From Desulfobulbaceae bacterium (lineage in GTDB: Bacteria; Desulfobacterota; Desulfobulbia; Desulfobulbales; VMSU01): a DNA stretch of 64,000 bases. The notes below the pieces were generated by a model, which had not been told where the DNA came from, made no database searches, and worked only from the letters and a program-made list of their open reading frames with translations. Of the stretch, positions 15,435 through 64,000 are shown piece after piece. The stretch spans positions 23,544 to 87,543 of the forward strand of contig JADGBM010000001.1 of assembly GCA_015231515.1 (NCBI GenBank), in the 5' to 3' direction. Made by a program: the position numbers and the translations under genes. Within the stretch, counting starts at the first letter, position 1, and every line of letters begins with the position of its first letter.

Positions 15435-15437
15435 CAG

Positions 15438-18400: not shown

Positions 18401-19559
18401 AGTGCCCAATTGCTTTTCCAACCAACTCCGACCAATTTCCGGAGAGAACAGGTTCCAGCGGCAGGACATTTTTTTCAATATGTATCTGATCTTTCTGCGC
18501 TTTCAGACTAAGTTCAGTTATCTGCAGCTGACCATCTGCGGCACTGGCCTGTAAACGAAATATATCGATAGGAACCCCAAACAACTTTCCTTGTTCAAGT
18601 AAAAAAAAGACCTCGCCGGTCAGGCGATATGGTTCTGCCATCGGGAAAGCGAGAACGCCACGTCCTTCTAGATTTCCTGTTTTTTCAATAGTGTCTCCGG
18701 AACTAACAACATCAATTTTCTTTAGGTTAATTCCTGAAATCGAAAAAGTGACTCGGGCCTCTTCTGCTATTACCGCCTCAAAGTTAGACCTACCTTCCCA
18801 AACTGTCACTTCAGCCTTTACGGAGATGTTCTCGCCATCACTTTTAACTATTAGATCGCGAGCAAGTTCTTCTCCGCCAACAGTTAACAGAGCAACTTCG
18901 TACGAACCAGGACGATACAAGGAGTCAACCCGAACCTCTTCGGCAGATGTTTCATAGTGTCCAAAAGAAAGATCAATACGTGAAGCTGTGACACCTATTG
19001 GCAGTACACTATTCTCGGTTGTAACAGATTGAGACGAGACCGATATCTCCCCTGCCCGTAATCCGATAGTCGTATCTGCTCGGGCAATGACCACACTCTC
19101 AAATCTGATCAAAAATGAAGGCAGGGGAAATGAGATACCCGGGAGATCAAAACCATATGACGAAGAAGTTGAAGAAGCTGATTGAAGATCGAATCTTGCA
19201 GATTGAAGGTCGGCAACAATCCGTGCCTTAGAGATTAGGGTTGAAAGATTTATTTTCAGATCAGAAAGTGCGAAATTAACCTGTAGCTGTGGCAGGTCAG
19301 TGTGAAGATTACTGCCATCTTCGAGGCGATAATCAACTAGTATGTTTTTAAATTCTATGGATGAAATAAGATCAGAATGGACAGACGCTATTGTCAGATC
19401 GAGGCCTGGCAGATACTTTTCAGCAAAAGGAATGGCAATGGATTGAACAGCAAAATTAACCAGGAGAAAACGACTACCATAAATCAGTCCGGCAAGAACA
19501 AGGAGAACGCATGCTGGAAAGACCAGAGTGCGCAGGATAAATTTCATGTAGTGTTTCAT
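15438..19559 (-). CDS. tamB: TamB-like translocation and assembly module protein (AsmA-like, DUF490 C-terminus)
   Basis: 1373 aa. Single N-terminal TM anchor and a long beta-rich repetitive body. C-terminus ..GGLRLVFKFK is typical of the DUF490 end. Adjacent to the Omp85 partner. Confidence 0.8.
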   Translation of the reverse strand: MKHYMKFILRTLVFPACVLLVLAGLIYGSRFLLVNFAVQSIAIPFAEKYLPGLDLTIASVHSDLISSIEFKNILVDYRLEDGSNLHTDLPQLQVNFALSDLKINLSTLISKARIVADLQSARFDLQSASSTSSSYGFDLPGISFPLPSFLIRFESVVIARADTTIGLRAGEISVSSQSVTTENSVLPIGVTASRIDLSFGHYETSAEEVRVDSLYRPGSYEVALLTVGGEELARDLIVKSDGENISVKAEVTVWEGRSNFEAVIAEEARVTFSISGINLKKIDVVSSGDTIEKTGNLEGRGVLAFPMAEPYRLTGEVFFLLEQGKLFGVPIDIFRLQASAADGQLQITELSLKAQKDQIHIEKNVLPLEPVLSGNWSELVGKAIGHFELSIARLGKYETQLPEQVNAIIERHKVDTFQASGKLNEGVLSVPHLLLNSEKVSLRANGIEADLNPWSASKSWQAVPIKADIQIDSTDADYLTDFIPEFGPFKGILKANLQLGGEIGDLITDFSIQGQKITYKKTNLDFLDLSGTVRDREIDFDAIRAVKGQDALEGALSYSFMRPNDTTGTFKVKVFEIDNYLSEGIREQSQLQGDLTGELDFRRVNGRFSGEFAFDSDSLSYTGERIEQIKVDAQLSGNDLTIRSFTGRYPGQDFTVSSLAGEIAFNREWDQFVAYLNSFSSTYRGKNIVLLNSAQFSYQTGQISTLEPIVFQYEAGRASIAGLASTDQVDLRLTGDIADGADFMVGIGQPEFSFGTASMKVGIKGSLQDPAIKFSGNIKQIKAKDAPPLDGFFDVSLAAGTLKIIKFVLSDDVSPRLQLHGELPISIEDRKIEFTNGPLQLFGDIDLQSSPLISWFFHDKIVQVGTVSGKIDLHGTRQNPLGVLQLKADNLILQDSSGWLPSEPISVDIAVKGEKNKISVAQSTIVSDSSSIVLQGSIFANGLLDNEFWADGKESVLDAGLDLKGTITFKDISWLADRLELLRRISGRADADFKLTGTLANPLVDAQISLRNGAMRFSNDMPALQEVGLQAKIVDSVVTISHFAGSLGGAPLMGKGTISLLGDDGQVSLDLQVSGSDLLFYRSEGVTIRGDASLKVYGISDRPSIDGSIVLTDTRVTKNIDFISSLLSGFSSRATPPPQFPAFTDPPLRDAVFNLTLTSKEPVAIANNMLRGKITPQLELHGTGEVPFLTGKIYIAETNLVLPAGKVKMDAGVVQFLETDPDRPVLELNGTAKMMGYDIVIGISGVYDAPVIMLSSTPSLSNEELLMLLLAGKRPSGLNNPQNQSKNYSGVAVYLGENLLKSIWGSDTNETTVPDRLQIEIGKNITQQGEETIEAQFVLAENIRNGQNALLLTGEKDVWDKYNGGLRLVFKFK

Positions 19560-27510: not shown

Positions 27511-30500
27511 ATGAGAAAAAGGACGGCACTACTTTTACTTCTGGTTATTGCTTTAACAGCACTCTATTTCACCCCCAAACTCCTCAACCAAAAACACTTT
27601 CAGGATCGCATAACCCGGGACTTGATCACAACATATGGTCTTGATTGCCGGTTTGCCGCTATCAGGTGGCACTGGTTACCATTTCCTGCTCTGTACATTG
27701 AACATTTCGAATCCAAATCAGACCTATTCACCTTAGAAGTTCCTCTCATACAACTCACTCCTCGCTTAAAATTTATTTTTGATGACAAAGGTCAGTTAGG
27801 CCGCATCAAGCTCATTAAGCCAGTCCTGCACTTTAAACATCTGCCAACTGCCGATAACATCAGAAGCAAATCAGCAATACCAGATTTGAACTTTGCTATT
27901 TCGGAAGGATCCATAACATTACCCCGAATTGACACAATTGGCGGCACGAACATCTCTCTCCAACCACTGGAAATTACTGACTTTAACCTGAAAATTAAGA
28001 GTACCAGTAACCGACTAAAATTTAATGGGAACTTTCAATCAAGTTTTAGTGATAAAATTGAAGCAATTGGCCGCATCGATCTCAACAAAAAATATTACCG
28101 TCTCGATTTAAGTGCCAACGAGACAAATATTGCCCCATTATTCAATCAGGCAGACAAAAATTACCAGATAAATGACTCACGAATATCCCTTAGGATGCAT
28201 TGTGAAGGTTTAGGTAAAGACAATTTCAAACTGAACTTTTCTGAAATCAATACCCCTTTCTCCCTTACTGCATATGGAGAGAGCTACAAAATACGCTCTA
28301 TTGGCAATGTTGCCTTCACTAAACTTGCCAATGAATTCTTTTTTGAGTTCGACCGTTTTGATTTTGAAGATCCTGCCGCAAGCTTTTCAGGTAAAGTGTC
28401 TAAACGTAATAACTCTCTTCAGAAAGAACCCGAGTGGACACTAGATATTTCAGGAAATGATATCGATCTCGCCTCTGTTCGGACACGGATTTTATCGTTA
28501 TGGCCTGAAAATGAAACCGCCACCACAACCTGCTCAGTTGTTAGAGGTGGTTTTGCCAAAACTGCCCGTTATATTTTCAAAGGACCGACCACAGACTTTG
28601 AATATCTTGATAAAATGAAAATTTGGGCTGAAGCTGTTGATGTTCCACTTTACATTTCGGATATTGGTCTTGCCATTGATCGTGCCAGCGGACCAATCAG
28701 TATTATCAATGGCTACCTTGCCGGAAAAAACCTGATGGCCGACATTGGCTCCACCCACGGCAAAAAGGCCTCTTTATGGCTTGATCTTATTGAACAAGAT
28801 GATGCCTTTTATCTCGATATTAATCTGGACGCTGATCTTCAGGATCTCCAGGATGTGCTTGGAATAATCATTGAAGATGACGCCTTTCAGAACGAACTCT
28901 GTCAATTTTCCGAAATTTCCGGCAGAGCAAAAGGCAACCTTACCCTTGGCAACACACTCGGTAATGTCGAAACAACTGTTCAGATATCGTATCTGTCTGC
29001 TGCCGGATTTTACGACAGACTGCCGTGGCCTTTTAAACTCGATGGCCGAAAGCTTGATATTTTACCCGACAAAGTTGTATGGGATGATTTTCAAGCGCAA
29101 GTTGGCGGGCAGACAATCAAAAAAACCTCCGGTTCAGTTGAGTGGGCAAATGAGATCAGTATACAAGTTACTGAACTTGATGCCACTGCTAACCTCGAGA
29201 CTCTTTTCGATCAGTCATTCCTTCAGGTGAACACCGGCAAAGCCTATCTTAAAAACGCCCTTCACGAAGTCATCACAGCAATTACTGGAGTGGCTGATTT
29301 TTCCAACACACAGTTTTCGGGGCCAGCTCTCTACCCTGAAAAATGGAAATTTGAGACTGCATTCGTACTAAACAACACAACAATTCATAGTCCGTACCTG
29401 CCTCCCGCTATTGTCAGTGAAATAGTTCAGGGAACTTTATCATCAAAGCAGGTTCGCTTTTCAGGAATTTTCAACTCTTTCGACCAGAATTTATTTATGT
29501 CCGGCACCTATAGCCACACCTTGCTTGACAACTGGCATGGCCGTATTGATCTGAATGGCATCGTTAAACCTAAACTTGGACAATGGCTGCGATCTACAGG
29601 CTGGATTCCGGATGAATTCTTTCCACGGCTACCGCTGACTTTAAATAATTTTCAAATAGCCAACACGGCGCCGTCTTTTGATTCGTTTCATCTTAATGGT
29701 GAGATAATCGCCCAGATCAATCAATCCGATACCAAATCAATGCTGATCGATATCAGTAAACAAAAAAATATATCCCTGAGCAGTTTGAATTTTAACGATG
29801 GTGTTATGCAGGGCAAAATCACCTACCTGGATCAATCGAAAAGCGGTCGATCACTGCTGACCTGGCAGGGCGGCATTACTATGAAAACCTTAGACTCATT
29901 TTTTGAGAAGAATATATTTAAAGAGGGTCAGATCAACGGTGTCTTCAGTCAACTATCCACTAAAAAACCAACTAAGGATACGACCTATGCCGGATACCTT
30001 GAGATCAATGATCTCTCCTGGAACTACCTACCCGACACCCCTCCCCTTATTGCCAGAAACATTCGGCTTAACGGAGAAGGAAACACCATACAGTTAAAAC
30101 AGTTCACTTCAGAAATTGAGGGTGACACCCTCGATGCAAAAGGCCAAATAACCCATTCAACAGATAAATTTCTTCTCGATATCTCCCTTCATTCAGAAAA
30201 TCTGACTTTCAATAAGATTAAAACCGCCTTTGATCTTCACAAAGAATTTATTAAAAAGAATCTGCAACCCACAAATTCGAATGGTCTGTTATCTCAGGAA
30301 GAACATACCGACTTTATTGATCAGCTCTCAGGCAAACTCGATTTTGACTTTTTTCGGCTGAACTATATCAAACAACCTGCTGACACAGAGAGCTTACCAA
30401 GCCAACCACCACATGTTTACACCTGGAAAAATCCCTATGGCACGATTTCATTTGATTCCGGCGACATAAAACTGCAATTTTTCCCAAGTGATCTATGCGG

Positions 30501-31245
30501 CATGAAAATGTCTGCCACCTATTATAATGGCGATAACGAATCGAAAAGTTTTTTTGATTTTATCTCGGGCACTGATGAGATTAACTTCGAGGAGTTTCTG
30601 CCCTGCATGGGGCAACAAAAAAGTATCATAAAAGGCCCTTTCAAAATAAAAGGGCACATAGAAGGTTTTCCCGGCAACTGGAACACTGGCGACCTGTCAT
30701 TAACGTCAGAGGGCGGCATTATTAAAAAAATGAATATTCTCTCCAATATTTTCAGCGTTATTAATTTCACTGAACTTTTTGCCTGGGGTGAGCCACCCGA
30801 TATCGACGGCAAGGGCCTTATGTATAGCGACCTGGTCTTAAAATCATATATTGACAAGAATACGCTGGTACTTGAACGTGCCGTTTTAAAAGGAAAAGGC
30901 GTAAATCTAACTGGTCGTGGTTCAATTGACCTGGCCGACAACGAATTCAATACTGATCTGACTTTTTTTGTTGCGCCTTTCAAGATGATAGACAACGTTA
31001 TTACCAACGTTCCTTTGGTCGGCAAGGCAATTGGCGGTGAGAAAGAATCTATTTTCACCTTTCCAGTCGGTGTTTCAGGCCCTCTTGCTAATCCTGAGAC
31101 CACAGCACTTCAGCCCAGTGCTGTCGGAAGTGCGGCAGTTGAATTCATACTTGACACCTTAACGCTGCCTTTTAGAATATTTATTCCTGATCTCACAAAA
31201 AACAAAAGACCAATTCCCATCGATGCCGAACCGATTAACGAATAA
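27511..31245 (+). CDS. AsmA-family giant envelope protein (YhdP-like)
   Basis: 1244 aa. N-terminal TM anchor plus an AsmA-type start. C-terminal block GKGVNLTGRGSIDL..VPLVGKAIGG..FPVGVSGPLANPE is typical of YhdP/AsmA C-termini. Confidence 0.7.
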   Translation: MRKRTALLLLLVIALTALYFTPKLLNQKHFQDRITRDLITTYGLDCRFAAIRWHWLPFPALYIEHFESKSDLFTLEVPLIQLTPRLKFIFDDKGQLGRIKLIKPVLHFKHLPTADNIRSKSAIPDLNFAISEGSITLPRIDTIGGTNISLQPLEITDFNLKIKSTSNRLKFNGNFQSSFSDKIEAIGRIDLNKKYYRLDLSANETNIAPLFNQADKNYQINDSRISLRMHCEGLGKDNFKLNFSEINTPFSLTAYGESYKIRSIGNVAFTKLANEFFFEFDRFDFEDPAASFSGKVSKRNNSLQKEPEWTLDISGNDIDLASVRTRILSLWPENETATTTCSVVRGGFAKTARYIFKGPTTDFEYLDKMKIWAEAVDVPLYISDIGLAIDRASGPISIINGYLAGKNLMADIGSTHGKKASLWLDLIEQDDAFYLDINLDADLQDLQDVLGIIIEDDAFQNELCQFSEISGRAKGNLTLGNTLGNVETTVQISYLSAAGFYDRLPWPFKLDGRKLDILPDKVVWDDFQAQVGGQTIKKTSGSVEWANEISIQVTELDATANLETLFDQSFLQVNTGKAYLKNALHEVITAITGVADFSNTQFSGPALYPEKWKFETAFVLNNTTIHSPYLPPAIVSEIVQGTLSSKQVRFSGIFNSFDQNLFMSGTYSHTLLDNWHGRIDLNGIVKPKLGQWLRSTGWIPDEFFPRLPLTLNNFQIANTAPSFDSFHLNGEIIAQINQSDTKSMLIDISKQKNISLSSLNFNDGVMQGKITYLDQSKSGRSLLTWQGGITMKTLDSFFEKNIFKEGQINGVFSQLSTKKPTKDTTYAGYLEINDLSWNYLPDTPPLIARNIRLNGEGNTIQLKQFTSEIEGDTLDAKGQITHSTDKFLLDISLHSENLTFNKIKTAFDLHKEFIKKNLQPTNSNGLLSQEEHTDFIDQLSGKLDFDFFRLNYIKQPADTESLPSQPPHVYTWKNPYGTISFDSGDIKLQFFPSDLCGMKMSATYYNGDNESKSFFDFISGTDEINFEEFLPCMGQQKSIIKGPFKIKGHIEGFPGNWNTGDLSLTSEGGIIKKMNILSNIFSVINFTELFAWGEPPDIDGKGLMYSDLVLKSYIDKNTLVLERAVLKGKGVNLTGRGSIDLADNEFNTDLTFFVAPFKMIDNVITNVPLVGKAIGGEKESIFTFPVGVSGPLANPETTALQPSAVGSAAVEFILDTLTLPFRIFIPDLTKNKRPIPIDAEPINE

Positions 31246-41610: not shown

Positions 41611-42735
41611 ATGTCATCAGAACCTCTTTTTACTCTTACTGATAACAGAAACAACGAACTCACCATGGCCATAGAGGGTGAATTGAACACCTCAAATACT
41701 GCCAGGTTCACGCAATTAGCAGAAATTGAAATCTCCTCAAAAAGACCATCTTCATTAATTGTCGATCTCTCTGACCTCAAAGCCATTGACGATTACGGCA
41801 TCTCATCGCTTGCCTGCATAAAACAGAAAATCCTATCGTCTGGAGGCAATTTTTATCTCACAAACGTTTCCGACACTATCAAAGAGTTATTCAAAATTCA
41901 CAGTTTTGACAAATTAACCGCCCCTCTTGCCTCTCCATCATCTTCACCGGATATATTTGTCAAAATCGGGTCTTCCACTTTAGTATCGATTAAGAAATTC
42001 TCTTTTGGCATGACTTTTCTGGGCGAAACGATATTCTCATTTTTTCGGCTCTTAGCGTCGCCTAAATCGTTTCGAACTGATGACACCATTTATAATATGC
42101 GCCGTGTTGGTGTCGATGCCCTGCCCATTGTTGCCCTTATAAGTTTTCTACTGGGCCTGATCATGGCTTTTATGTCCTCAGTGCAGCTCAAGCAGTTCGG
42201 AGCAAATATTTACGTTGCCTCGTTAGTTGGTTTAAGTATGACCCGTGAACTTGGGCCTATCATGACCGCTATAATTGTGTCTGGCAGATCCTCTTCAGCA
42301 TTTGCAGCAGAGATTGGTTCAATGAAAATCTCTGAGGAGATTGATGCTCTTTTCACAATGGGTATAGATCCGCATCAGTTTTTGGTGCTACCACGAATTA
42401 TCGCCACGGTGTTGATGGTTCCTCTCCTCATTTTATTTTCAGACATATTTGCCATCTTGGGGGGGCTGATTGTCGGTATCACCATGCTTGGTCTCACCGT
42501 AGATGGTTACATCACTCAAACAATTAATACTCTTAGACTTTTTGATGTATTCTGGGGGGTCTTTAAAGGGGGAATATTTGCTCTGTTTATCTCATGGATC
42601 GGCTGCCTGCGAGGATTTCAGGTAAAAGAAGGCGCAGCCGACGTTGGCAAAGCCACAACTTCTGCCGTAGTTACCAGCATATTCATGGTCATTGTCATTG
42701 ACTCTATCATGGTCGTTATTTTGAGGTACTGGTAA
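41611..42735 (+). CDS. STAS-domain / MlaE-type ABC permease fusion
   Basis: The N-terminal 100 aa or so are anti-sigma-antagonist-like (LTMAIEGELN..LIVDLSDLKAIDDYGISSL). The C-terminal part is the MlaE core (TRELGPIMTAIIVSGRSSSAFAAEIGSMKISEEIDAL). Confidence 0.8.
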   Translation: MSSEPLFTLTDNRNNELTMAIEGELNTSNTARFTQLAEIEISSKRPSSLIVDLSDLKAIDDYGISSLACIKQKILSSGGNFYLTNVSDTIKELFKIHSFDKLTAPLASPSSSPDIFVKIGSSTLVSIKKFSFGMTFLGETIFSFFRLLASPKSFRTDDTIYNMRRVGVDALPIVALISFLLGLIMAFMSSVQLKQFGANIYVASLVGLSMTRELGPIMTAIIVSGRSSSAFAAEIGSMKISEEIDALFTMGIDPHQFLVLPRIIATVLMVPLLILFSDIFAILGGLIVGITMLGLTVDGYITQTINTLRLFDVFWGVFKGGIFALFISWIGCLRGFQVKEGAADVGKATTSAVVTSIFMVIVIDSIMVVILRYW

Positions 42736-43508
42736 TGACTATGTTCCGCGAAAAGCCCCGATCCCTGATTCAGGTTCGAGATCTTACCTGCGGCTTTGAA
42801 AATCAGATAATTCTTAAAAGTATCAATTTTGATGTTAATGCCGGTGAAATATTCATTATTTTAGGCGGCAGTGGGTGCGGGAAAAGCACCCTTCTTAAAC
42901 ACATGATCGGATTACTTCAACCCCTTTCCGGAACCATAGTCATTAACGAGATGGATGTTACTGGAGGCTCAAGTAAAACTCTTCATACCGTATTGCGACA
43001 ATGCGGTATTTTATTTCAGAGCGGCGCCCTGTTCGGCTCTATGACCCTGGCTGAAAATGTTGCGCTTCCATTACGTGAATACTCCGGCCTTCCTGAAGAA
43101 AACATTCAATGTCTGGTCAAAATGAAACTTAATATGGTGGGTCTATTGGGCTATGAAAACCATTTCCCAACTGAAATTTCAGGGGGCATGAAAAAAAGAG
43201 CCGGCCTTGCACGCGCCATGGCCCTTAACCCCTCTATTCTTTTTTGTGATGAACCGTCGGCCGGGCTTGACCCGATTACATCTGCAGAACTTGACCGCCT
43301 ACTGCTCCATATTAATCACACTTTAGGCACTACCATGATCATCGTAACACACGAGTTATCTAGTGTTTTTAACATAGCTGACCGGGTCATAATGCTTGAC
43401 AAAAACATTAAGGGAATTGTCGCTGAAGGTGATCCCTTTCAACTCCGAGACCACAGTCTTAACAGCTACGTACAGCGCTTTTTTAGACGAAAACCTGAAG
43501 CACCATAG
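42735..43508 (+). CDS. MlaF-type ABC transporter ATPase
   Basis: Walker A GGSGCGKST, signature SGGMKKR, Walker B ILFCDEPSAGLD. The start overlaps the permease stop (TAATG). Confidence 0.88.
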   Translation: MTMFREKPRSLIQVRDLTCGFENQIILKSINFDVNAGEIFIILGGSGCGKSTLLKHMIGLLQPLSGTIVINEMDVTGGSSKTLHTVLRQCGILFQSGALFGSMTLAENVALPLREYSGLPEENIQCLVKMKLNMVGLLGYENHFPTEISGGMKKRAGLARAMALNPSILFCDEPSAGLDPITSAELDRLLLHINHTLGTTMIIVTHELSSVFNIADRVIMLDKNIKGIVAEGDPFQLRDHSLNSYVQRFFRRKPEAP

Positions 43509-43534
43509 CAACGTAGAGATCTCGATTTATTATT

Positions 43535-44497
43535 ATGAACGATAAGAAAACCAAATTTATAGTAGGCTTCTTTGTGGCCTGCGGTCTTTCCATTATTGTG
43601 GTCACTGTTATCTGGCTTGGAATGAGTAATTTTTTCCAAAAAGGTGATCTCTATTCGATTTTTTTTGATGAATCTGTCCAGGGTCTTACAGTGGAGGCAC
43701 CGGTAAAGTATCGAGGTGTGCCTATTGGCAGGGTTCAGCGTATTAAAGTAGCTGCAGACTCCCATTTAATCGAGGTTGTCATTGAGCTTTCACATGATTT
43801 CACGCTCCAGCATAAAGTCGTTGCCCAGCTCAAGGTTGTCGGTATTACAGGCAATATGTTCATTGAGCTTGACCACGATACAGATGAATCTTCAGGTCAA
43901 ATTATTACTCAGCTGAATTTCCCCACCGAATATCCCGTTATTCCGGCGCGCTCATCAGATATCAAGCAACTTTTTAGCAGTGTGGAAGAGATTGTTACGA
44001 AATTGAAAACCATCGATATCGCCGGTCTCGCTACAGATGTAAAAAAGACCATAAACCATATTGACAAGGCAATTACCGATACTGACATTACAGGTCTTTC
44101 GACTCAAATCCAATTGACCTTTGAACAGTTCAACTCAACTCTCTCCAACTCAGACCTCCCTCAAATAACCGCACGATTAAACTCTTTACTTGAGCACCTT
44201 GATAAATCTGTACAGGCTTTAGATATTACCGAGCTCAGTACTGAGGCAAAAAACACATTACATGCCCTGCGCCAGGATACCAACGAACTGCTTATTGCCA
44301 CTCAACCACTTCTCATCAAGGCATCCGACACGATAGGCGCTGCTGAAAACACTATTGATATTTTCAACAAACAGCTTCTTATTATAAGCCAACAAACACA
44401 ACGAACGAACAGCAAACTAAACGACCTGATCGACCAACTCAACGACCAGCCATCACAGCTACTCTTTGGGGATGCCCCGGCAAGACGCATACAATAA
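43535..44497 (+). CDS. MCE-domain (MlaD-like) protein with extended helical repeat tail
   Basis: TM anchor plus MCE core (FDESVQGLTVEAPVKYRGVPIGRV). Then about four tandem 21-22-aa repeats (IDIAGLATD.., TDITGLSTQ.., SDLPQITAR.., LDITELSTE..) at roughly 44009-44285. Confidence 0.8.
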   Translation: MNDKKTKFIVGFFVACGLSIIVVTVIWLGMSNFFQKGDLYSIFFDESVQGLTVEAPVKYRGVPIGRVQRIKVAADSHLIEVVIELSHDFTLQHKVVAQLKVVGITGNMFIELDHDTDESSGQIITQLNFPTEYPVIPARSSDIKQLFSSVEEIVTKLKTIDIAGLATDVKKTINHIDKAITDTDITGLSTQIQLTFEQFNSTLSNSDLPQITARLNSLLEHLDKSVQALDITELSTEAKNTLHALRQDTNELLIATQPLLIKASDTIGAAENTIDIFNKQLLIISQQTQRTNSKLNDLIDQLNDQPSQLLFGDAPARRIQ

Positions 44498-44503
44498 TCC
44501 ATT

Positions 44504-45181
44504 ATGAGTATATCCATGACGCCTTATTATCGACTCAAACCCCGCATAATCAGCAAGTTCCCAAGTAAAATCGCCTTCACCTCAGCCATTGTCATTTTGT
44601 GTACTCTGCTGTTTTATGGCTGTCTTCCATCAAAACAGCCACCCATTACTATCGACTATTATACCCTCGACTATGAACCGCCACCGGCTAATGAGGCCCC
44701 TGTTATTCCGGTAATTATAGCAGTTGATCGTTTTTCTTCATCTCCGGAATATCAAACGGACAAGATGCTCTATCAAGAAAAAAAAGCGACAATATCCGCC
44801 TACACCTATCATCGATGGCGAACAACCCCGGCCGATATTGTTTCATATTATCTGGCCAGAGATCTGCAAGCCTCCAAACTTTTCCTGGCCGTTACTTCTC
44901 CATCAGGACGCCTGAGGCCGACCCATCGTCTTGAAGGTGTAGTCGATAAATTTATTGAATCCGATGAAGAACCATACTGGTATGCTGTAATTTCTGTCAC
45001 AATTACTGTCGTGAAGGAGGCTGAACCAGACGTTACAAAACAGGTATTGACCCAACAATCTTTCAGCTCAAAAATCCGCTGCCAGGAAAAAAGCCCTTTA
45101 GCTGTTTCACAGGCCATGGCTTTGGCAATGGCGGAAATCACACACGACATAACTATCTTGCTGGCAAAAAAACTACGATGA
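44504..45181 (+). CDS. ABC-transport auxiliary lipoprotein (DUF330 / PqiC-YmbA-like)
   Basis: Lipobox LFYGC. Size and position after an MCE gene are typical. The Y..H.W...P pattern (YTYHRWRTTPADIV) matches the family. Confidence 0.65.
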   Translation: MSISMTPYYRLKPRIISKFPSKIAFTSAIVILCTLLFYGCLPSKQPPITIDYYTLDYEPPPANEAPVIPVIIAVDRFSSSPEYQTDKMLYQEKKATISAYTYHRWRTTPADIVSYYLARDLQASKLFLAVTSPSGRLRPTHRLEGVVDKFIESDEEPYWYAVISVTITVVKEAEPDVTKQVLTQQSFSSKIRCQEKSPLAVSQAMALAMAEITHDITILLAKKLR

Positions 45182-46524: not shown

Positions 46525-47295
46525 ATGCCACCAAAGGAAAAAACCACTGTGACACCTTTAAATTTAACCAAAGTCAACCCCAAAGCAGTAGAGACGATAC
46601 GGCCTTTTTTTGAGCAAATCCTTTCAACGCACCAGGCAAAGATTCACTCCCTGGTCGTTACCGGCTCCGCTATTACTGAAGATTTCAACAGTTCCAAATC
46701 GGATGTCAATTCTATAATTATTTTAAAAGATATGGACTTAAAATTTTTAGAGGAAATTGCCCCACTTGGTAAAAAATTTGGCAAGAAAAAGGTCGCTGCT
46801 CCTCTTATAATGACCCCGGACTATATCACCGAGTCACTTGATGTTTTTCCCATTGAATTTCTCAATTTCAAAATTATACACCAGACAGCATATGGCAACG
46901 AAATTCTCGATAGCATTGAGATTGAACGGCACGACCTTCGGCATCAATGTGAGAGGGAGATAAAAACTAAATTGATCGGGTTGCGTCAGGGGTACCTTTC
47001 ATCACAGGCCGACCCACAATTATTGTCTGAGAAATTCATCGCAGTCATAACCAGCGATATCCCTCTCTTTCGGGCGCTTATGTTCTTACTTCGGCAAGAA
47101 TCGGTGATACAAGTAAATAAAGTCATACAGACCCTATCAACTGCTGTCGCCATCAATACTGATCCGTTTTTTAAAGCCCAGCAAATTAAACAAAATGTAC
47201 TGAAACCATCAATGGCTGAATTTAACACCATATTCGAAAACTACTATAGTGCTTTTGAGAAATTAGGAAAGATAGTTAATGAAATCAGTATCTAA
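46525..47295 (+). CDS. Nucleotidyltransferase-fold-like protein (motif degenerate)
   Basis: TGSAITEDFNSSKSDVNSIIIL resembles the minimal NTase G-S-x(9-13)-D-h-D signature, but with DVN in place of DxD. The start codon is uncertain. Confidence 0.4.
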   Translation: MPPKEKTTVTPLNLTKVNPKAVETIRPFFEQILSTHQAKIHSLVVTGSAITEDFNSSKSDVNSIIILKDMDLKFLEEIAPLGKKFGKKKVAAPLIMTPDYITESLDVFPIEFLNFKIIHQTAYGNEILDSIEIERHDLRHQCEREIKTKLIGLRQGYLSSQADPQLLSEKFIAVITSDIPLFRALMFLLRQESVIQVNKVIQTLSTAVAINTDPFFKAQQIKQNVLKPSMAEFNTIFENYYSAFEKLGKIVNEISI

Positions 47296-48049
47296 ACTTT
47301 TAACTCTATTAATTATTCTGCTACTAAGTACTGCTTCTTCAATCCCTGCAGCAGTTACCATTCCGGCTCAACCTGCAAACTACGTTGTTGATCTGGCCGA
47401 TATTATTAACGTCAACGCAGAAACATCCCTGAACAGTTACCTCAAGGAGCTTGAACAAAAAACATCTGCCCAGGTTATTGTACTCACTATTACCTCCTTA
47501 GATGGCGATTCTATAGAGGATTTTTCCATTAATCTCGCTCATGACAAGTGGAAACTCGGACAAAAGGGCAAAGATAATGGCTTACTGTTTGTTGTTTCAA
47601 CTCAGGACAGAAAATACCGGTTTGAAGTCGGATACGGTTTAGAATCAATACTGCCAGACAGCCTGGTTGGCTCTATCGGACGCCAATATCTTGTGCCGTA
47701 TTTAAAAAAAGGTGATTATTCTAACGGTATTCTATCATCAACTCTCGCTGTTATAAAAATTATAGCAAATGATGCCGGCGTTACCATTGGCGATCTTCCG
47801 CCAATACCTGCAAGTAATGATTATGGAAAACAACAACTCAAACCCAAATCCCCTCTTGAAAAACTTCTTCCCTTTCTCATTTTAATTATCATGATCTATT
47901 TTATTATCAGGCATCCTCGCTTGGCCCTTTTTCTGCTCATGATGAATATGGGTGGTGGTAGAAGTCGGGGGGGCTGGAGTGGTGGAGGTGGTTTTGGTGG
48001 AGGAGGCGGCGGTGGTTTTGGCGGTGGCGGGGCCTCGGGCGGCTGGTAA
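47279..48049 (+). CDS. TPM-domain (YgcG-like) protein with TM segment and Gly-rich tail
   Basis: Signal peptide. TPM core (VVDLADII..LE..T.AQVIVLTI.SL.G..IEDF....KW.LG.KGKDNGLLFVVS..DRKYRFEVGYGLE). C-terminal GGGRSRGGWSGGGGFGGGGGGGFGGGG. Confidence 0.8.
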   Translation: MKSVSKLLTLLIILLLSTASSIPAAVTIPAQPANYVVDLADIINVNAETSLNSYLKELEQKTSAQVIVLTITSLDGDSIEDFSINLAHDKWKLGQKGKDNGLLFVVSTQDRKYRFEVGYGLESILPDSLVGSIGRQYLVPYLKKGDYSNGILSSTLAVIKIIANDAGVTIGDLPPIPASNDYGKQQLKPKSPLEKLLPFLILIIMIYFIIRHPRLALFLLMMNMGGGRSRGGWSGGGGFGGGGGGGFGGGGASGGW

Positions 48050-48072: not shown

Positions 48073-48648
48073 ATGTCAAAAGGACTTAAAACAGTATTAA
48101 TTGTCGCGGGAATACTACTATTTTTGGCGTTCGCAATATTCAAATGGTACGTGGGCGGCTACAATAAGGTTGTCTCTATGGATGAGAATGTAAAAGGAAG
48201 TTGGGCTGAGGTAGAGAATCAGCTAAAACGTAGATATGATCTTATTCCCAACCTGATAGAAACCGTCAAAGGCTATGCCTCTCATGAGAAGGAACTTTTT
48301 CAATTTATTGCAGAGGCCCGTACGAAATATTTCAGTGCTCCAACAGTTAAGGGTAAAATTGAATCATCTAACCAATTAGAAGGTGCTCTTTCAAAGCTTC
48401 TGCTCCTGCGAGAACAGTATCCACAGCTTAAGGCCAATGAATCCTTCCTCAAGCTGCAAGATAGTCTGGAAGGAACAGAGAACCGCATTGCAGTCGCCAG
48501 AAAACGATATAACGATTCCGTGCAGCTCCTCAACACCTACATCAGAACTTTCATGGGCCGATTTTTTGCGGGCTTTGCCGGGGTAACTAATGCTGAATAC
48601 TTCAAAGTGCCCGAAGCGGAACAGGCTGTGCCGCAGGTTAAATTTTAA
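48073..48648 (+). CDS. LemA-family protein
   Basis: N-terminal TM helix. Conserved W.EVENQLKRRYDLIPNL..TVKGYA.HE and NRIAVARKRYND blocks. Confidence 0.85.
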   Translation: MSKGLKTVLIVAGILLFLAFAIFKWYVGGYNKVVSMDENVKGSWAEVENQLKRRYDLIPNLIETVKGYASHEKELFQFIAEARTKYFSAPTVKGKIESSNQLEGALSKLLLLREQYPQLKANESFLKLQDSLEGTENRIAVARKRYNDSVQLLNTYIRTFMGRFFAGFAGVTNAEYFKVPEAEQAVPQVKF

Positions 48649-48657
48649 GGATAAATT

Positions 48658-48999
48658 ATGAATATAGACTGGGCTTACATGCGAAAAGGCTGAAAATCTT
48701 GTCAAAAAGCACAGGCTGTGCTTGATCACAACAACTCGGCAATACATTCAATTGCTGATGCTCGTGTGGATAAACTTGAATCAAATGACGCTTGGGAAAT
48801 ACTGAACAAATCGTCTAATCTTATTATCGCCAAGGGAAAAAAGACCTTGGAGTTTGTTCCTTCAACCAAGAATAAGGCGGAAATACTCTCTCATGCTATT
48901 GGCAGAAGCGGCACATTACGAGCGCCGACGTTGATCATTGCCGATAAAATTGTTGTCGGCTACCAGGATGAGCTTTATACCAACCTGTTCAGCAAATAA
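48658..48999 (+). CDS. Candidate selenoprotein: ArsC/Spx-fold thioredoxin-like protein with U-x-x-C (in-frame TGA at 48691-48693)
   Basis: ATG 48658 lies 6 nt after AAGGA. It reads MNIDWAYMRKG-TGA-KSCQKAQAVLD.. in frame with the track ORF 48718..48999. The C-terminus LRAPTLIIADKIVVGYQDELY is ArsC/Spx-like. A SECIS-like hairpin lies just downstream of the TGA. Confidence 0.6.
48699..48731 (+). promoter_or_regulatory. SECIS-like stem-loop downstream of the in-frame UGA
   Basis: Lower stem TTGT (48699-702) pairs with ACAA (48728-731). After a 4x4 internal loop, upper stem AAGCACA (48707-713) pairs with TGTGCTT (48717-723). The apical loop is G-rich (GGC). The structure begins 6 nt after the UGA. 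Confidence 0.45.
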
Positions 49000-58140: not shown

Positions 58141-59202
58141 TTACCGTTCCAAGGCCTCAAGGTTTTTAATAATTTGCCGGATGAACATCCTGTTAATTCC
58201 AGGATAAAACCCTAAGCCCTTAAAAAACGGCTCTCCCTTAAACTCTTTCATAACAGAATCAACCTGTACACCGCCCGCCTCAAGCTCCATCGACCAGGAG
58301 GCCTCACCCTCAACAACTTCTGTAGCCATGATATCGTTCATTATATGATCTCCGGCGACATACATAAAGGGTATCAACCTGACCATCTTCGGGTTACATT
58401 GTTTAGCCTGACCAATGGCCTGATTACGAGTCAAAACCCCATCGACACCACCAATATAGACATTTTGATAGGCAGATGACAGATACCGATCAAGCCCGAG
58501 GTAGGTAGAAGTTGAACCAGAAAATGTCTCTGGTGTTCCGTGTACAACGAGTATATTGCAACCTTCTTTACTGGAGAGAAACTCTGGCTCAACTTGACTG
58601 ACCGCCTCAAACACAAACGGCCATTCATGAAGCAGTGTTCCTCCAATAGTAATGTGAAGCCCAAGAAGTTCAAATGCCTCTGCTGCTTTTTCAACCTCTT
58701 CAAACTCTTGACCGGGAAAGATATGTAAAGACTGAACAACTATCTCCCGGTAGCCCTCATCGTCCAAGTCGGCAAGGGTCTGCGCCAAACTTATATAACG
58801 TCTATCCAGACCAGCCTCTTTAAATTTCTTATTTGCTCGCTCCCGCACAATTTCCGATGTAAAAGCCCAGCGAATTTCGTGATTTTTGTACTTTTCTGGG
58901 AGTTCATGCCTGAGTTGCTCCTCAAAAAAATCATAAGTAACTCGGGCCTTGGTCGTTGTACCAAATGCAGCTATAACGATGGCCGGATCACCCTTAATAG
59001 TTCGGCTCATCGCCTTTACATCCTGACCAAAGCCGCACCAGAGAATAGCAGTGACCACAATTATACAGCTCTTTATCAAGATAGTCATAGTAGGCCTGAC
59101 AACCTTTTCCCTAAATGCTTTACGTAAAATTGATTGATAAACATCCCAATCATTAGTGTATCGAATAGCTTGTTTCACATAACAAATTTCCTGCTTACTC
59201 AT
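58141..59202 (-). CDS. cbiK: Sirohydrochlorin cobaltochelatase CbiK-type, with N-terminal hydrophobic/signal-like extension
   Basis: CbiK core begins ..AIVIAAFGTT. and includes ..SLHIFPGQEF and ..HGT.. blocks. The ATG at 59202 follows GAGGAG with 6-nt spacing. ATG 59088 is an alternative start giving a classical signal peptide MTILIKSCIIVVTAILWCGFGQDVKA. Confidence 0.75.
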   Translation of the reverse strand: MSKQEICYVKQAIRYTNDWDVYQSILRKAFREKVVRPTMTILIKSCIIVVTAILWCGFGQDVKAMSRTIKGDPAIVIAAFGTTTKARVTYDFFEEQLRHELPEKYKNHEIRWAFTSEIVRERANKKFKEAGLDRRYISLAQTLADLDDEGYREIVVQSLHIFPGQEFEEVEKAAEAFELLGLHITIGGTLLHEWPFVFEAVSQVEPEFLSSKEGCNILVVHGTPETFSGSTSTYLGLDRYLSSAYQNVYIGGVDGVLTRNQAIGQAKQCNPKMVRLIPFMYVAGDHIMNDIMATEVVEGEASWSMELEAGGVQVDSVMKEFKGEPFFKGLGFYPGINRMFIRQIIKNLEALER

Positions 59203-59237
59203 AACAATCTCCTCATCCATGGTTTCAAGCAGGTCTG

Positions 59238-59299: not shown

Positions 59300-59495
59300 G
59301 TAATTACAGCCTTATATCCTCGAGGCTGTGTTGTATTTTAGGCAGGTCTTCTGACTTTTCCGCCTTTACGACAGCCTTCCCAACCAGTATCGGTCAGTGG
59401 CAATAATCGGTCGTAAAGTTCCAACAGATACATTCGTTGGACGGAATTACAGCGGCGGGCCCGCTCCTGATTCTCACAGGATTCCCTATTAAGCT
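59300..59495 (-). promoter_or_regulatory. Cobalamin (B12) riboswitch aptamer
   Basis: The minus strand reads ..GGGAATCCTGTGAGAATCAGG..CCCGCCGCTGTAA..TTGCCACTG..GGGAAGGC..AAGTCAGAAGACCTGCC. The last element matches the B12-box consensus AGYCMGGAGACCKGCC. Confidence 0.85.
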
Positions 59496-59592
59496 AAGCA
59501 CCTAAAATTGATATAAATACCAACTAATCGAATTAAGCTTTCTTGCCAACAGAAAAATCAGATACTCGGAGATTTTTATTTTGTTAGTTATT

Positions 59593-61788
59593 TTAGCAGT
59601 CGAGATGGTTTGGAAGAAAACCGTAGTGATTGAGACCGTCAATGATTCCGGCAGCATACTTTTCGGGGCTGAAATAGATGCGGGGTTTCCCCTTGAGGTC
59701 TTCAAGTTCACGGCTGTGGTTGCCAACCACAACCCCACAGCTTCGGCCGCGAAGCATATCTTCGTCGTTTCCGGAATCACCTGCAACCATGACATTTTGG
59801 GGAGAAATTGCCCACTTATACTGAAGATATTTGATTGCTTTTCCTTTTGATGCACGATAGGGCAGGATATCTAAAAACTGGCCATGGGAAAATATTACCT
59901 GACAAAGAAGTTTCGCTGCCGCAAGGTGCTGGTGCACACGGGCCAGCAGTTCCGGGTCGTCTTTCATGTAGTAACTTATTTTAAAGGCCCTTTGTCCTTC
60001 TTGACCCTGGAGTCCGAGGAAATCAAGCCTTCCAAGAACGTCTCGTATCTGTTCCGGTTTCCAGTTTTTTGAGAGATGCTGCTGCCAGCCGCGATCAATA
60101 CGCAGGTTTGGCCCATAATAGATCTCAGTACCGACTGAGCAGATAAGGACATCCGGAATTGGGATAAGCTGTTCGTTCATAATGTCGATTGTCAGCTCAA
60201 GACTTCGACCTGTGGCCACTCCCCAGGCCAACTTTCGGCTATTGCCTCGAAGAATATTGAGCAGCTGTTTTAAACTTCTTTTGTCGCCGGCCAGGGTATT
60301 GTCAATGTCTGAGATCAAAATTTTCTTTACAAGGTTCAGTCTCTGACCATAGGAAAGGGTTGCCCCTTCACCTTTGTTCACCACCGGCGGAACCTTTTTA
60401 TCCGGTAAAAGCGCGATAAACTCTTCGACGCTCTTTTCACAGTGGGCATCCCAGGAATAGTGCTTCCCGACGCCGTTGATGCCGTTTTCTGAAAAGTGTT
60501 GCCACATGCTCCGATCGACAAGAATTGCTTTCAGCGCCTTAGCAATCTCCTCCGGGTTTGAAGGGTTGATCAGGGTGCCGTTTTGGCAGTTGGCGATAAT
60601 GTCGATAGGGCCCCCATCATTGGTTGCCACCAGTGGCACGCCGCAGGCAGCCGCTTCAATGAGGGTAATGCCAAAAGGCTCCACCATGGCAGGATTGACA
60701 AACACACCGCCGCTTTCCGCGCATATTCTGTAAAGCTCTGGAACCTCAGAAGAAAAATCATGCTTTTTGGGGATGGCTAATTTGCCGTAGAGGTCAAATT
60801 GATCCATCAGGAGCAGCATGTTGGTGAGGACGTTCCGTTCATTGTCCTCCATGGTGGCAATATCTTTTCTAATGCCGGCAAAGACGGCCAGGTTGGCCAT
60901 GGCCTGTAGTTCCTTATCCTGGCCATAGGCGGTGATCAGGCCGCAGATGTTTTTCCGGTGGTCAGGGCGGCAGAGCACAAGAATGAATGGTTTTTTGGGA
61001 ACCGACCAGAAGCGGTGCAGTTCGCGGCGCAAAGCCACTCGGGCCTGCTTTGTACCTTCATCAATACTCTCCGGGGCAATCTCGTTATTATAATAGGGGT
61101 AGAAAACATCAAGGTCGATTCCCGGCGGAATGATTTTGAAAGACTTTATTTTAGAAAAATTACCATAGAGGCCATATTGCTTTTCGATCTCCTGATTGGT
61201 TGAGGTTATAATCAACTGGGCCGCCTCCATAATCTCTTCTTCAACGGCAATACGGGTTTTCATCTTAAGGTGTTCGTTGATTTTATCCTGTGCGATTCCA
61301 TCTCCGAGCAGATTCACCTCTTTATTGCGCCCCAGCGAGTGACCGGTAAAGACAAAGGGGGCGGCAAAGGTTTCAGCCAGATTCATGGCAGCATAGCCCC
61401 CGTCCGCATAATGACCGTGAAAAATGTCCGGTAAGCGAAGTTGTTTTTTCAAAAAACGAATGGTTCTATCGACGAACTCCTCCATATGGGGCCAGAGCAG
61501 TTCTTTGCGGATATACTTTCTGGGCCCGCATTGTATCCTGACAATTCGGGCTTTTTCGCTTAAGGGCTCAATCTCTTCTGCATATGCAGGGGAAACCCTT
61601 TTGTCGATGATTAGTCTTGTGACAAGATCAACCTGGGAGACTAAAGGGTGCTCAGCAAGAGATTTGGCTAGTTCAAGAACATATTTTACCTGACCTCCGG
61701 TGTCGGCATCTCTGCCAAGTTCAGGAGAGTCTCCTCGTATGAGGCCGTGAATGCTGAAGAGCTGAATATAAAATCCTTTTGAGTCCAT
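59593..61788 (-). CDS. sps: Sucrose-phosphate synthase (GT4) with C-terminal sucrose-phosphatase-like HAD domain
   Basis: N-terminal FSIHGLIRG..LGRDADTGGQVKYV. GT-B core EPFG(I)TLIEAAA.G.P. C-terminal HAD motif I ISDIDNTL. The start is set at ATG 61788 (GGGAGAG ribosome-binding site), not the track's 61986. Confidence 0.85.
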   Translation of the reverse strand: MDSKGFYIQLFSIHGLIRGDSPELGRDADTGGQVKYVLELAKSLAEHPLVSQVDLVTRLIIDKRVSPAYAEEIEPLSEKARIVRIQCGPRKYIRKELLWPHMEEFVDRTIRFLKKQLRLPDIFHGHYADGGYAAMNLAETFAAPFVFTGHSLGRNKEVNLLGDGIAQDKINEHLKMKTRIAVEEEIMEAAQLIITSTNQEIEKQYGLYGNFSKIKSFKIIPPGIDLDVFYPYYNNEIAPESIDEGTKQARVALRRELHRFWSVPKKPFILVLCRPDHRKNICGLITAYGQDKELQAMANLAVFAGIRKDIATMEDNERNVLTNMLLLMDQFDLYGKLAIPKKHDFSSEVPELYRICAESGGVFVNPAMVEPFGITLIEAAACGVPLVATNDGGPIDIIANCQNGTLINPSNPEEIAKALKAILVDRSMWQHFSENGINGVGKHYSWDAHCEKSVEEFIALLPDKKVPPVVNKGEGATLSYGQRLNLVKKILISDIDNTLAGDKRSLKQLLNILRGNSRKLAWGVATGRSLELTIDIMNEQLIPIPDVLICSVGTEIYYGPNLRIDRGWQQHLSKNWKPEQIRDVLGRLDFLGLQGQEGQRAFKISYYMKDDPELLARVHQHLAAAKLLCQVIFSHGQFLDILPYRASKGKAIKYLQYKWAISPQNVMVAGDSGNDEDMLRGRSCGVVVGNHSRELEDLKGKPRIYFSPEKYAAGIIDGLNHYGFLPNHLDC

Positions 61789-61883
61789 ACTATACTCTCC
61801 CGTATGCTTGTGATCTGAATTGAGCGATACCAAAATGTAATCTGTTCTGCCTCTCACATGGTAATGTGAGACGATCCTTCCCT

Positions 61884-62747
61884 TCAGGACAAATCGTCTT
61901 GGATGTGCTTCATTACAGGTGTTGCGCCATGCTGAGAAGCAACGAAGGCGCCCCGTTTGTTGGCTTGGACAAGGCACTCCTGCCAATTGCGTTTGCGCAG
62001 AATGCCATTAATGAGAGCAGCAAAAAAGGCGTCACCGGCCCCGACGGGGTCTGCCACCTTTACCGGAAACCCGCCATGTTGAAACACACCGTCATGACAG
62101 ACAAGCATGGCCCCTTTTCCACCAAGCGTGACGGCGAGAACCTCCAAATGGAATTTATCCAGAACCGCAAGAGCCATCTCTTCCAAGCCCCCTTCAGGAA
62201 GAGACGACCATTTATTTATGACCGCAAGTTCGTCTTCGTTCACCTTTCCAACATTGGCCTGCTCAAGCGAGTTGAGGACACATTCCCGGGGGGTGTAGGG
62301 CGGCCTTAAATTGACGTCATAGAAGACGGTCTCTGCCCCGGCTTGAAGGCTTCGGATGGTGGATTGGCTTATTGCTGAGCGCTGGGCCAAGGTGCCGCAG
62401 ACCAGATGATAAGAGTTCTGGGTGAGTCTGCTAATCTCCGAGAGATGAATAAAGTCCCAGGCGGCCGGGGAGAGTATTTCAAAAGAGGGCTCGTTGGTGT
62501 CGTCCAGATGGACCAGAACCTGGCCGGTCGGATATTTGGGGTCGTACTGGATTGTATTAACTGTGAGGCCAAGCTGCTCGATTTTCTGAATGGCGGCTTG
62601 GCCGTATTCATCGTGGCCGACCTTACTTATGATGCGGGCGTTTTGCCCCATATCCTGCAAATGGTAAGCAACATTGAGCGGCGCGCCCCCTAATGCCTTT
62701 TTTGATGCAAAGATATCCCAGACAATTTCCCCGATGCAAATAATCAT
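61884..62747 (-). CDS. PfkB-family carbohydrate kinase (probable fructokinase)
   Basis: N-terminal ICIGEIVWD..GGAPLNVA and C-terminal DPVGAGDAF motifs. Position within the sucrose cluster. AAGGA ribosome-binding site. Confidence 0.8.
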   Translation of the reverse strand: MIICIGEIVWDIFASKKALGGAPLNVAYHLQDMGQNARIISKVGHDEYGQAAIQKIEQLGLTVNTIQYDPKYPTGQVLVHLDDTNEPSFEILSPAAWDFIHLSEISRLTQNSYHLVCGTLAQRSAISQSTIRSLQAGAETVFYDVNLRPPYTPRECVLNSLEQANVGKVNEDELAVINKWSSLPEGGLEEMALAVLDKFHLEVLAVTLGGKGAMLVCHDGVFQHGGFPVKVADPVGAGDAFFAALINGILRKRNWQECLVQANKRGAFVASQHGATPVMKHIQDDLS

Positions 62748-62765
62748 ATTTATCCTTCATTTAAT

Positions 62766-62785
62766 CATCGTTTAACATCGTTTAA
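62766..62785. repeat. Perfect tandem 10-bp duplication (CATCGTTTAA x2) in the fructokinase leader/promoter
   Basis: 62766-62775 and 62776-62785 are identical. The flanks extend this to three imperfect TTTAA(C/T)..CG units across 62760-62789. Confidence 0.7.
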
Positions 62786-62914
62786 CAGGTATGATACCAT
62801 AAAACAGATAAATAACGTGAAATAATTGTCCCAGGGAATTATGGTCATCAAACAGGTCTTTGTCTATCAGGACCAAATTTCTTTTGACGAGATTTACAAA
62901 CCAGGGAGGGATTC

Positions 62915-64000
62915 ATGCTATCGCAACTAACTGAATTTATTTTAAAAAACCGTGAAATCGTAGACAAACTTTTTCGGCGCTACCAGACCTCTGGGAAGAG
63001 TTTTTTGCTTAGAACCGACCTCTGGGATATATTTCAGGACTTTTGCAACGAAAATAACTCTTGTACACTTTTGCACTCCTCTTTCAGCCAAGCGATAGCA
63101 AAAACCCAGGAAGCAGCGATCTCCGATCAGTGGCTCTACCTTGACATTCGACCAAAAGCCGCCACTTGGCAACGTCTGCGCTATCACTTTGAGACGATGG
63201 AATTTGAAGAAATTCCCATTAGCGAGTTTTTATATTTCAAAGAGCAGCTTATTAACGGTCAATCCCATAAAAGGCCGTTGGTGGTCGACTTTAAACCCTT
63301 TGAACGATATTTACCAAAAATGAACCAGTCCAGTTCGATTGGCCGCGGTGTTGAGTTTCTGAATCGTCGACTTTCGGGGAGACTTTCCCATGATCTCATA
63401 AAAGGAGAGGCGCTCCTTCTCTCCTTCATGAAGGTCCACAATTACCAGGGCACGCCATTCATGATCAACAATCGGATTGACACGATTTCCGATCTTCGAA
63501 AGGCATTACAGCGAGGCATTGAGTTAACTGCTTCGGCCCAGGGTAATAAGAACTCAGGCCTGGGAGCACGTCTTCAGCAGTTTGGCTTTGAGCCAGGATG
63601 GGGGCGCACAGCAAAACAGATCCATGATAAATTCAGGTTGTTAGCAGATATTCTTGAGGCTCCAGACCATAGGAACCTTGAGCGGTTTCTCGGGAATATC
63701 CCGATGATCTTCAATATCGTTATTTTCTCCCCGCACGGCTATTTCGGGCAGGAGAATGTTTTAGGTCTGCCCGACACAGGAGGGCAAGTAGTCTATATTC
63801 TGGATCAGGTTCGTGCCCTCGAAAAGGAGATGAGAAAAAAGATTTATAGTCAGGGACTTGATATCGAACCAAAGATAATCATTGTGACCCGTTTAATTCC
63901 AGAGGCAGGTGATACTACCTGTGATCAGCCTCTGGAAAAGGTTGTGGGCACTGAAAATGTTCATATCCTTCGCGTTCCCTTTCGTGATGAGGGCGGGGCG
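62915..64000 (+). CDS. susA: Sucrose synthase (5' portion; runs off the window end)
   Basis: ATG 62915 follows GGGAGGG. The frame stays open to the window end. ..FSPHGYFGQENVLGLPDTGGQVVYILDQVRALE.. is the hallmark SuSy GT-B N-domain motif. Absent from the ORF track because there is no stop codon in the window. Confidence 0.85.
   Translation, partial: MLSQLTEFILKNREIVDKLFRRYQTSGKSFLLRTDLWDIFQDFCNENNSCTLLHSSFSQAIAKTQEAAISDQWLYLDIRPKAATWQRLRYHFETMEFEEIPISEFLYFKEQLINGQSHKRPLVVDFKPFERYLPKMNQSSSIGRGVEFLNRRLSGRLSHDLIKGEALLLSFMKVHNYQGTPFMINNRIDTISDLRKALQRGIELTASAQGNKNSGLGARLQQFGFEPGWGRTAKQIHDKFRLLADILEAPDHRNLERFLGNIPMIFNIVIFSPHGYFGQENVLGLPDTGGQVVYILDQVRALEKEMRKKIYSQGLDIEPKIIIVTRLIPEAGDTTCDQPLEKVVGTENVHILRVPFRDEGGA

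Follow-up and report, generated by a model that had tools for sequence, protein, structure and literature searches.

In a 64,000-nt stretch of DNA from a Desulfobulbaceae genome (hereafter referred to as the window), an ORF of 93 aa apparently starts at the GTG of 48718–48720 (+) and ends at the TAA of 48997–48999. In the same frame, an ATG lies further upstream (48658–48660), and only one in-frame TGA (48691–48693) occurs between this ATG and the stop. The question raised by this locus is whether the gene is the short ORF or whether translation begins at the ATG and passes through the TGA. The evidence presented below makes the second answer very likely: the region 48658–48999 (+) would encode a 113-residue cytoplasmic selenoprotein of the NF041106 family, in which the UGA at 48691–48693 is read as selenocysteine (Sec) under the direction of a stem-loop lying inside the coding sequence.

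The reading frame and the column of the TGA

The ATG is preceded at a distance of 6 nt by a Shine-Dalgarno-like AAGGA (48647–48651), which lies within 10 nt of the end of the LemA ORF (48073–48648); the ATG itself is located 10 nt past the stop codon of that ORF (48646–48648). An earlier note on this DNA had described this arrangement of the AAGGA, the ATG six nucleotides on, the lone TGA and the 93-aa ORF from GTG 48718, and we confirmed it. The peptide that the note had read through the TGA was also reproduced by our translation, in which the complete product from ATG to TAA has 113 residues (MNIDWAYMRKG-U-KSCQKAQAVLD...LRAPTLIIADKIVVGYQDELYTNLFSK, the translated end being ...YTNLFSK). In this product, the TGA is codon 12 and provides the first residue of a UxxC motif, the TGT of 48700–48702 encodes the probable resolving Cys of U-K-S-C, and the GTG that appears to be a start codon is really the codon of Val21.

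The truncation by gene callers that had been anticipated for this gene is real: its public record in nr is MBF0220670.1, a hypothetical protein of 77 aa. A word-indexed protein search gave seven relatives, two of which (P0003 and P0004) start at "MLD" and are thus cut at the same place as the 93-aa ORF; at the column of the TGA, Trp is written in two others (P0001 and P0006) and Cys in one (P0005). At the DNA level, this column was TGA in L001, L002, L003, L005 and L006, and TGC in L004. An HMM search of 1.84 billion cluster representatives then provided 580 family members at E values up to 1e-3. When the best 150 of these 580 were inspected at the column, 96 were found to begin after it, 43 have Cys, 10 have Trp and 1 has Arg. 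A start past the column, as in these 96 representatives, is the characteristic mark left when a gene caller cuts a gene at its Sec codon. The single Arg belongs to P0139, a library representative of 74 aa with the sequence MRKGRTSC, and may have arisen either by mutation of TGA to CGA or AGA, or from an error in the sequencing of a fragment.

A broader view of the codon usage at this column was obtained from a scan of one genome per species, which found 321 relatives. Eighty of them were fetched and, together with the earlier loci and the window gene, make up a set of 87 homologous loci. Since the scan pattern sits upstream of the Sec column, this set is unbiased between TGA and TGC. The codon was TGA in 85 loci and TGC in the remaining 2. 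The hosts are mostly MAGs and isolates of Desulfobulbales (Desulforhopalus, Desulfopila, Desulfotalea and Desulfofustis), and Planctomycetota, Myxococcota and a few others are also represented. Cultured carriers of the gene include Desulforhopalus singaporensis DSM 12130 (L074) and Desulfopila sp. IMCC35008 (L069). The Cys located at +3 from the column is present in 86 of the 87 loci. The sole exception at +3 is L061 10034 (a Desulforapulum autotrophicum MAG), which carries U-V-S-T, namely, a Sec without the resolving Cys. The only two loci with the TGC, or Cys, form are L004 49 and L068 10034.

The 11 codons preceding the TGA (48658–48690; MNIDWAYMRKG), which are dropped by gene callers, are informative about the position of the gene start. 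The earlier note had left their conservation as a point to be checked, and across the 87 loci they proved to be strongly conserved at the amino acid level: Trp, Arg and Lys occur in 87/87 loci, Gly in 84/87, Asp in 81/87 and Ile in 78/87. At the same time, synonymous codons are used freely, with Arg encoded by CGC, CGT, CGA, AGA or AGG, Gly by all GGN codons and Ala by all GCN codons. Conservation of the amino acids combined with free synonymous change indicates purifying selection on a translated sequence, and thus the gene start is not GTG 48718.

This result bears directly on the reading in which the true gene begins at GTG 48718 (the 93-aa ORF) or corresponds to the 77-aa product in nr, and the stretch from the ATG to the TGA is an untranslated leader. 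Such a reading is what the mechanical ORF list and the public annotation (P0002, P0003 and P0004; MBF0220670.1) provide. We nevertheless regard it as quite improbable, because it does not account for a leader that is conserved as amino acids while its synonymous third positions vary in the 87 loci, and because the NF041106 model aligns with the product from model position 1. In addition, no Shine-Dalgarno-like sequence is found ahead of 48718, and in the predicted fold, a start at Val21 would remove strand β1 together with the active-site motif and the larger part of helix 1.

The stem-loop downstream of the UGA

If the gene indeed starts at ATG 48658 and its UGA is read as Sec, an RNA element directing this decoding should be sought close to the UGA. 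In bacteria, the SECIS is a stem-loop located just 3′ of the UGA, and its apical loop is small and carries a guanosine (PMC1088965). In the MFE fold of 48685–48750, a SECIS-like stem-loop was found within the coding sequence (48689–48740, +). It consists of an outer stem (48689–48693 paired with 48736–48740), a middle stem (48699–48702 with 48728–48731) and an upper stem (48707–48713 with 48717–48723), which is closed by the apical loop GGC (48714–48716), 20 nt after the UGA. The presence of this G-containing loop downstream of the UGA agrees with the published description. The MFE is −15.7 kcal/mol with a z-score of −2.43, and equal or better folding was obtained in 5 of 200 shuffled sequences. 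Taken alone, this z-score is modest, and the hairpin becomes convincing only because of the family-wide folding and covariation.

The 45 nt following the UGA were therefore compared among 83 sequences of the family. Their mean z-score was −1.23, and 40% of the sequences fell below −1.5; for comparison, five control offsets within these genes gave means of about 0 to −0.4, with 8–15% below −1.5. The best ungapped stem was centered 21–27 nt past the UGA in 75 of the 87 loci, and it was formed by several different stem sequences. Within the 41 sequences of the largest register group, 87% of the cells were paired, a percentage that is inflated by the selection of this group by its stem register, and changes on both sides were found at 5 of the 8 pairs. 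For example, pair 24–36 is AU in 25 sequences, GC in 10, GU in 2, UA in 2 and CG in 1. The covariation score of this group was reached by 0 of 500 shuffles, and slid registers gave scores 2 to 7 times lower. When RNAalifold was applied to the ungapped alignment of the 83 sequences, no consensus structure was obtained, because the stem register shifts by 1–8 nt between clades; the position-specific z-score test and the pair counting within register groups described above were used in its place. Thus, the hairpin noticed earlier downstream of the UGA is real, and it recurs in the family at the same position with compensatory changes.

In the small clade to which the window gene belongs, the hairpin is almost invariant, and it is kept in the Cys-form locus L004. 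There, its conservation is inseparable from that of the encoded K-A-Q-A-V-L. L004 is close to the window gene, and the retention of the GCACAGGCUGUGC hairpin in it is consistent with either a recent Sec-to-Cys change or a constraint on the peptide.

By analogy with other bacterial systems, the stem-loop would present its small G-containing apical loop approximately 20 nt downstream of the UGA, at the position of a bacterial SECIS, where the loop would be bound by SelB loaded with Sec-tRNA(Sec) when a ribosome stands at the UGA.

The distribution of the TGA and the behavior of the hairpin are also relevant to the explanation that the locus is a pseudogene, in which a Cys-form redoxin gene has suffered a nonsense mutation from TGC or TGT to TGA. 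The TGA is one substitution away from either of these Cys codons, and no Sec machinery was found within the 64-kb window, as would suit such a mutation. However, TGA occupies the same column in 85 of the 87 loci, which come from several phyla and otherwise have an intact frame, and a position-specific, covarying hairpin would have to accompany the mutation. For these reasons, we consider a pseudogene to be very improbable.

Family membership and predicted fold

The affiliation of the read-through product was examined by profile comparison, with U written as C in the query protein. NCBIfam NF041106, "ArsC family (seleno)protein", scored 116.1 bits, above its curated cutoff of 85 (E 1e-33), and this match spans model positions 1–107 of 107 and query residues 3–107. 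For Pfam ArsC (PF03960), the score was 15.5 bits, below the gathering threshold of 24, although the alignment extends over residues 7–108; this combination points to a distant superfamily relative rather than a Pfam-level member. The scores for the Spx/MgsR models (TIGR01617, 19.8 vs 75.05; NF002459, 15.1 vs 123) and for the ArsC reductase model (NF008107, 13.2 vs 121) were all under the respective cutoffs, the glutaredoxin models also remained far below theirs for the 113-residue product, and TIGR00014 was absent among the model hits at E values up to 1. The identity of an arsenate reductase was therefore rejected on the score of NF008107 and the absence of a TIGR00014 hit, and that of an Spx regulator on the scores of TIGR01617 and NF002459, which lie far under the cutoffs; accordingly, neither arsenate reduction nor Spx-like transcription control is supported. 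The full-length match to NF041106, together with the sub-threshold scores of the other models, assigns the product to one particular selenoprotein family for which a curated model already exists. Judging from the sequence comparisons, this family is a distant branch of the ArsC/Spx superfamily.

Structural information was obtained from an AlphaFold2 model of the Cys homologue P0005, which is 52% identical to the window protein, based on a six-sequence alignment (pLDDT 93, pTM 0.85). The order of the elements in this P0005 model is β 2–8, α 13–24, β 28–34, α 42–49, β 54–59, β 62–66, α 70–84, β 91–94, β 97–100 and α 104–108. The first strand corresponds to the residues encoded before the TGA, and residue 12 stands directly before helix 1. 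The position before helix 1 is the classic nucleophile site of the thioredoxin fold. In a Foldseek comparison of the model with the PDB, the top matches were Spx, a Brucella ArsC-related protein, YffB and a Bacteroides ArsC-family protein, with TM-scores of 0.50–0.57 and a probability of 1.00, and these were followed by NrdH and glutaredoxins. The sequence profile likewise found Spx (E 1.2e-5) and placed the Sec column on the first Cys (Cys10) of its CxxC. The product is thus predicted, through the model of its homologue, to have the thioredoxin-like fold of the ArsC/Spx superfamily, with the active-site residue N-terminal to helix 1. The relationship to ArsC/Spx proteins that the earlier note had suggested holds as that of a distant superfamily member, by the Pfam/NCBIfam scores, the Spx profile match and the fold match alike. 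Its further claim that the TGA stands where a catalytic Cys would be expected is borne out by the 2 TGC loci, by the 43 Cys representatives among the best 150 of 580, and by Cys10 of Spx.

Among the solved structures, Spx (Bacillus subtilis and streptococci; PDB 1z3e, 3gfk, 3l78 and 6ghb) is the best match in both profile and fold. The two proteins have in common the CxxC position at the N-terminus of helix 1 and an R-x-P motif before the last strands. However, beyond the low TM-scores, the window protein is about 20 residues shorter, the place of part of the Spx helical subdomain is taken by a β-hairpin (54–66) in the P0005 model, and nothing points to RNA polymerase binding by the window protein. 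The glutaredoxin-coupled ArsC and its UxxS selenoprotein form ("Arsenate reductase 1", TIGR00014/pfam03960; PMC1088965, PMC2398784) belong to the same superfamily and have their nucleophile at the same structural position, but the motif in the window protein is UxxC, not UxxS.

In the predicted structure, Sec12 would be located at the N-terminus of helix 1, three residues before Cys15. From what is established for CxxC redoxins, the protein would most likely work as a selenol/thiol oxidoreductase. An initial attack of Sec12 on an oxidised substrate would be followed by a selenenylsulfide between Sec12 and Cys15, to be recycled by a cellular reductant.

According to the remaining explanation, the UGA would be decoded as an amino acid other than Sec, through an alternative code in which it means Trp or through near-cognate read-through. 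This explanation finds its support in the Trp written at the column by some metagenome gene callers (P0001 and P0006; 10 of the best 150 of 580), but it is hardly credible, since 13 of the 40 Pfam-supported ORFs in the window use TGA as their stop and 175 TGG codons there specify Trp, since Cys is the only sense-codon alternative in the genomic loci and outnumbers Arg by 43 to 1 in the best 150 of 580 representatives, and since the column aligns with a redox Cys of Spx. This stop-codon usage, together with the TGG-encoded Trp, indicates the standard code, and an alternative genetic code was thus rejected.

The Sec-containing reading of 48658–48999 places the gene in a class that has been described under several names; the earlier note had mentioned ArsC-like proteins among the known UxxC thioredoxin-fold selenoproteins. 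"ArsC-like" selenoproteins, including one of Desulfotalea psychrophila, were listed by Zhang et al. (2006, Table 3; PMC1794560). In the GOS data, "Arsenate reductase 2, cd03032, UxxC" comprised 42 Sec forms and 238 Cys homologues (2008; PMC2398784), and the name in a 2026 review is "Arsenate reductase-like protein, UxxC" (PMC13188914). NF041106 is the family designated by the latter two names, and as far as the review reports, no member has been tested experimentally. The window gene shares with NF041106 the full-length match above the cutoff, the UxxC at the same column, the mixture of Sec and Cys forms and the coding-region hairpin after the UGA. There is no substantive difference, except that the window copy stands behind a TPM/LemA pair, while many Desulfobulbales copies are associated with cox, ferritin and AhpC genes. 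The Desulfotalea psychrophila protein (PMC1794560) comes from the same order-level lineage, Desulfobulbales, and probably belongs to NF041106 as well. In a Desulfotalea sp. MAG, a locus of this family (L019) likewise has TGA in the Sec column. The gene is therefore a re-annotated addition to a known selenoprotein family and not a new kind of system.

Accordingly, our understanding of selenocysteine decoding is unchanged by this gene, and its practical value lies in annotation. MBF0220670.1 is a 77-aa fragment without the active site; approximately two thirds of the best 150 of the 580 representatives from the 1.84-billion library are truncated similarly, and some others carry a spurious Trp. 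A well-delimited example, together with the data on the neighborhoods of its relatives, could aid the choice of a system for biochemistry.

Selenium use and gene neighborhoods

Judging from the presence of this selenoprotein gene, the organism probably uses selenium. Within the window, selA, selB and selD were absent from the approximately 40 Pfam-annotated ORFs, and ARAGORN detected no tRNA in the 64 kb and no tRNA-Sec in 40 relative loci. Besides the gene at 48658–48999, nothing credible was found in the window among other TGA read-through ORFs. The large subunit of a [NiFe]-hydrogenase (4455–5729, −) was considered as a second selenoprotein and rejected; it ends in DPCISCSVH and is thus the Cys form. 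With neither Sec machinery nor a second selenoprotein gene in the window, Sec decoding at this locus rests on the arguments from lineage and family. The lineage, Desulfobulbales, uses Sec: for Desulfotalea psychrophila, 12 selenoproteins are listed, including SelD and the ArsC-like protein (PMC1794560).

The gene order around the locus is FecR, MlaE/F/D, a cNMP-PAS protein, an unknown ORF, TPM phosphatase, LemA and the selenoprotein gene, followed by genes for a pentapeptide-repeat protein, a PKD-domain protein, Lon, PALP, peptidase S13 and rubrerythrin. No convincing promoter was seen in the gap between the LemA and selenoprotein genes. Given this and the short distance of 10 nt from the LemA stop to the ATG, the TPM-phosphatase, LemA and selenoprotein genes probably share a transcript. 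The association with LemA/TPM does not amount to a conserved operon, because the gene neighborhood in the window is syntenic only with that of the nearest relative, L002; the pentapeptide-repeat neighbor is also retained in L004 and L005. The TPM-phosphatase-domain protein encoded upstream of LemA (47279–48049, +) has a long Gly-rich tail, ...GGGRSRGGWSGGGGFGGGGGGGFGGGGASGGW.

A different arrangement was found in 24–30 of 81 family loci, in which the gene is located directly downstream, on the same strand, of genes for COX1/COX2/COX3/COX4 and a UbiA-family prenyltransferase. This arrangement, within 4 kb of the Sec gene, is represented by L030, L050, L056, L070, L071, L072, L074 and about 25 others. 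Ferritin is often the adjacent upstream gene in these loci, and the genes for AhpC, an FAD protein and RecA follow downstream, with AhpC close by. The neighborhood of cox, ferritin and AhpC genes gives a hint of a role related to oxygen or oxidative stress, but this synteny could equally be an inherited gene order within one bacterial order, Desulfobulbales. The window copy is without such a neighborhood, and the rubrerythrin gene is 8.6 kb off. It is conceivable, though we consider it rather unlikely, that, instead of being arsenate reductases or Spx-type regulators, the proteins of this family are compact selenol redoxins dedicated to handling oxygen or oxidative stress in anaerobes.

Several other features of the window were also observed. 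The hydrogenase large subunit mentioned above belongs to a four-gene [NiFe]-hydrogenase cluster (4455–8495, −) encoding NiFeSe_Hases large, Oxidored_q6 small, FAD/NAD-binding and Fer4_22 subunits, which resembles a cytoplasmic group-3-type enzyme. Genes for outer-membrane lipids and biogenesis are abundant (8780–9403, +; 41611–45181, +; 13254–19559, −; 27511–31245, +) and include two MlaE-type systems, an Omp85/TamB pair, a YhdP/AsmA-like protein of 1244 aa, LpxR and a cardiolipin-synthase-like PLD protein. A cobalamin riboswitch (59324–59520, −; Rfam RF00174, 95.9 bits) is located directly upstream of the ORF of the CbiK cobalt chelatase (58141–59220, −), which is an ordinary B12-regulated arrangement. 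Finally, a sucrose gene set occupies 59593–63997 of the window in this Desulfobulbaceae genome: it is composed of a fused sucrose-phosphate synthase/phosphatase (59593–61986, −), a PfkB sugar kinase (61884–62747, −) and a sucrose synthase that starts at 62954 (+) and runs off the end of the window.
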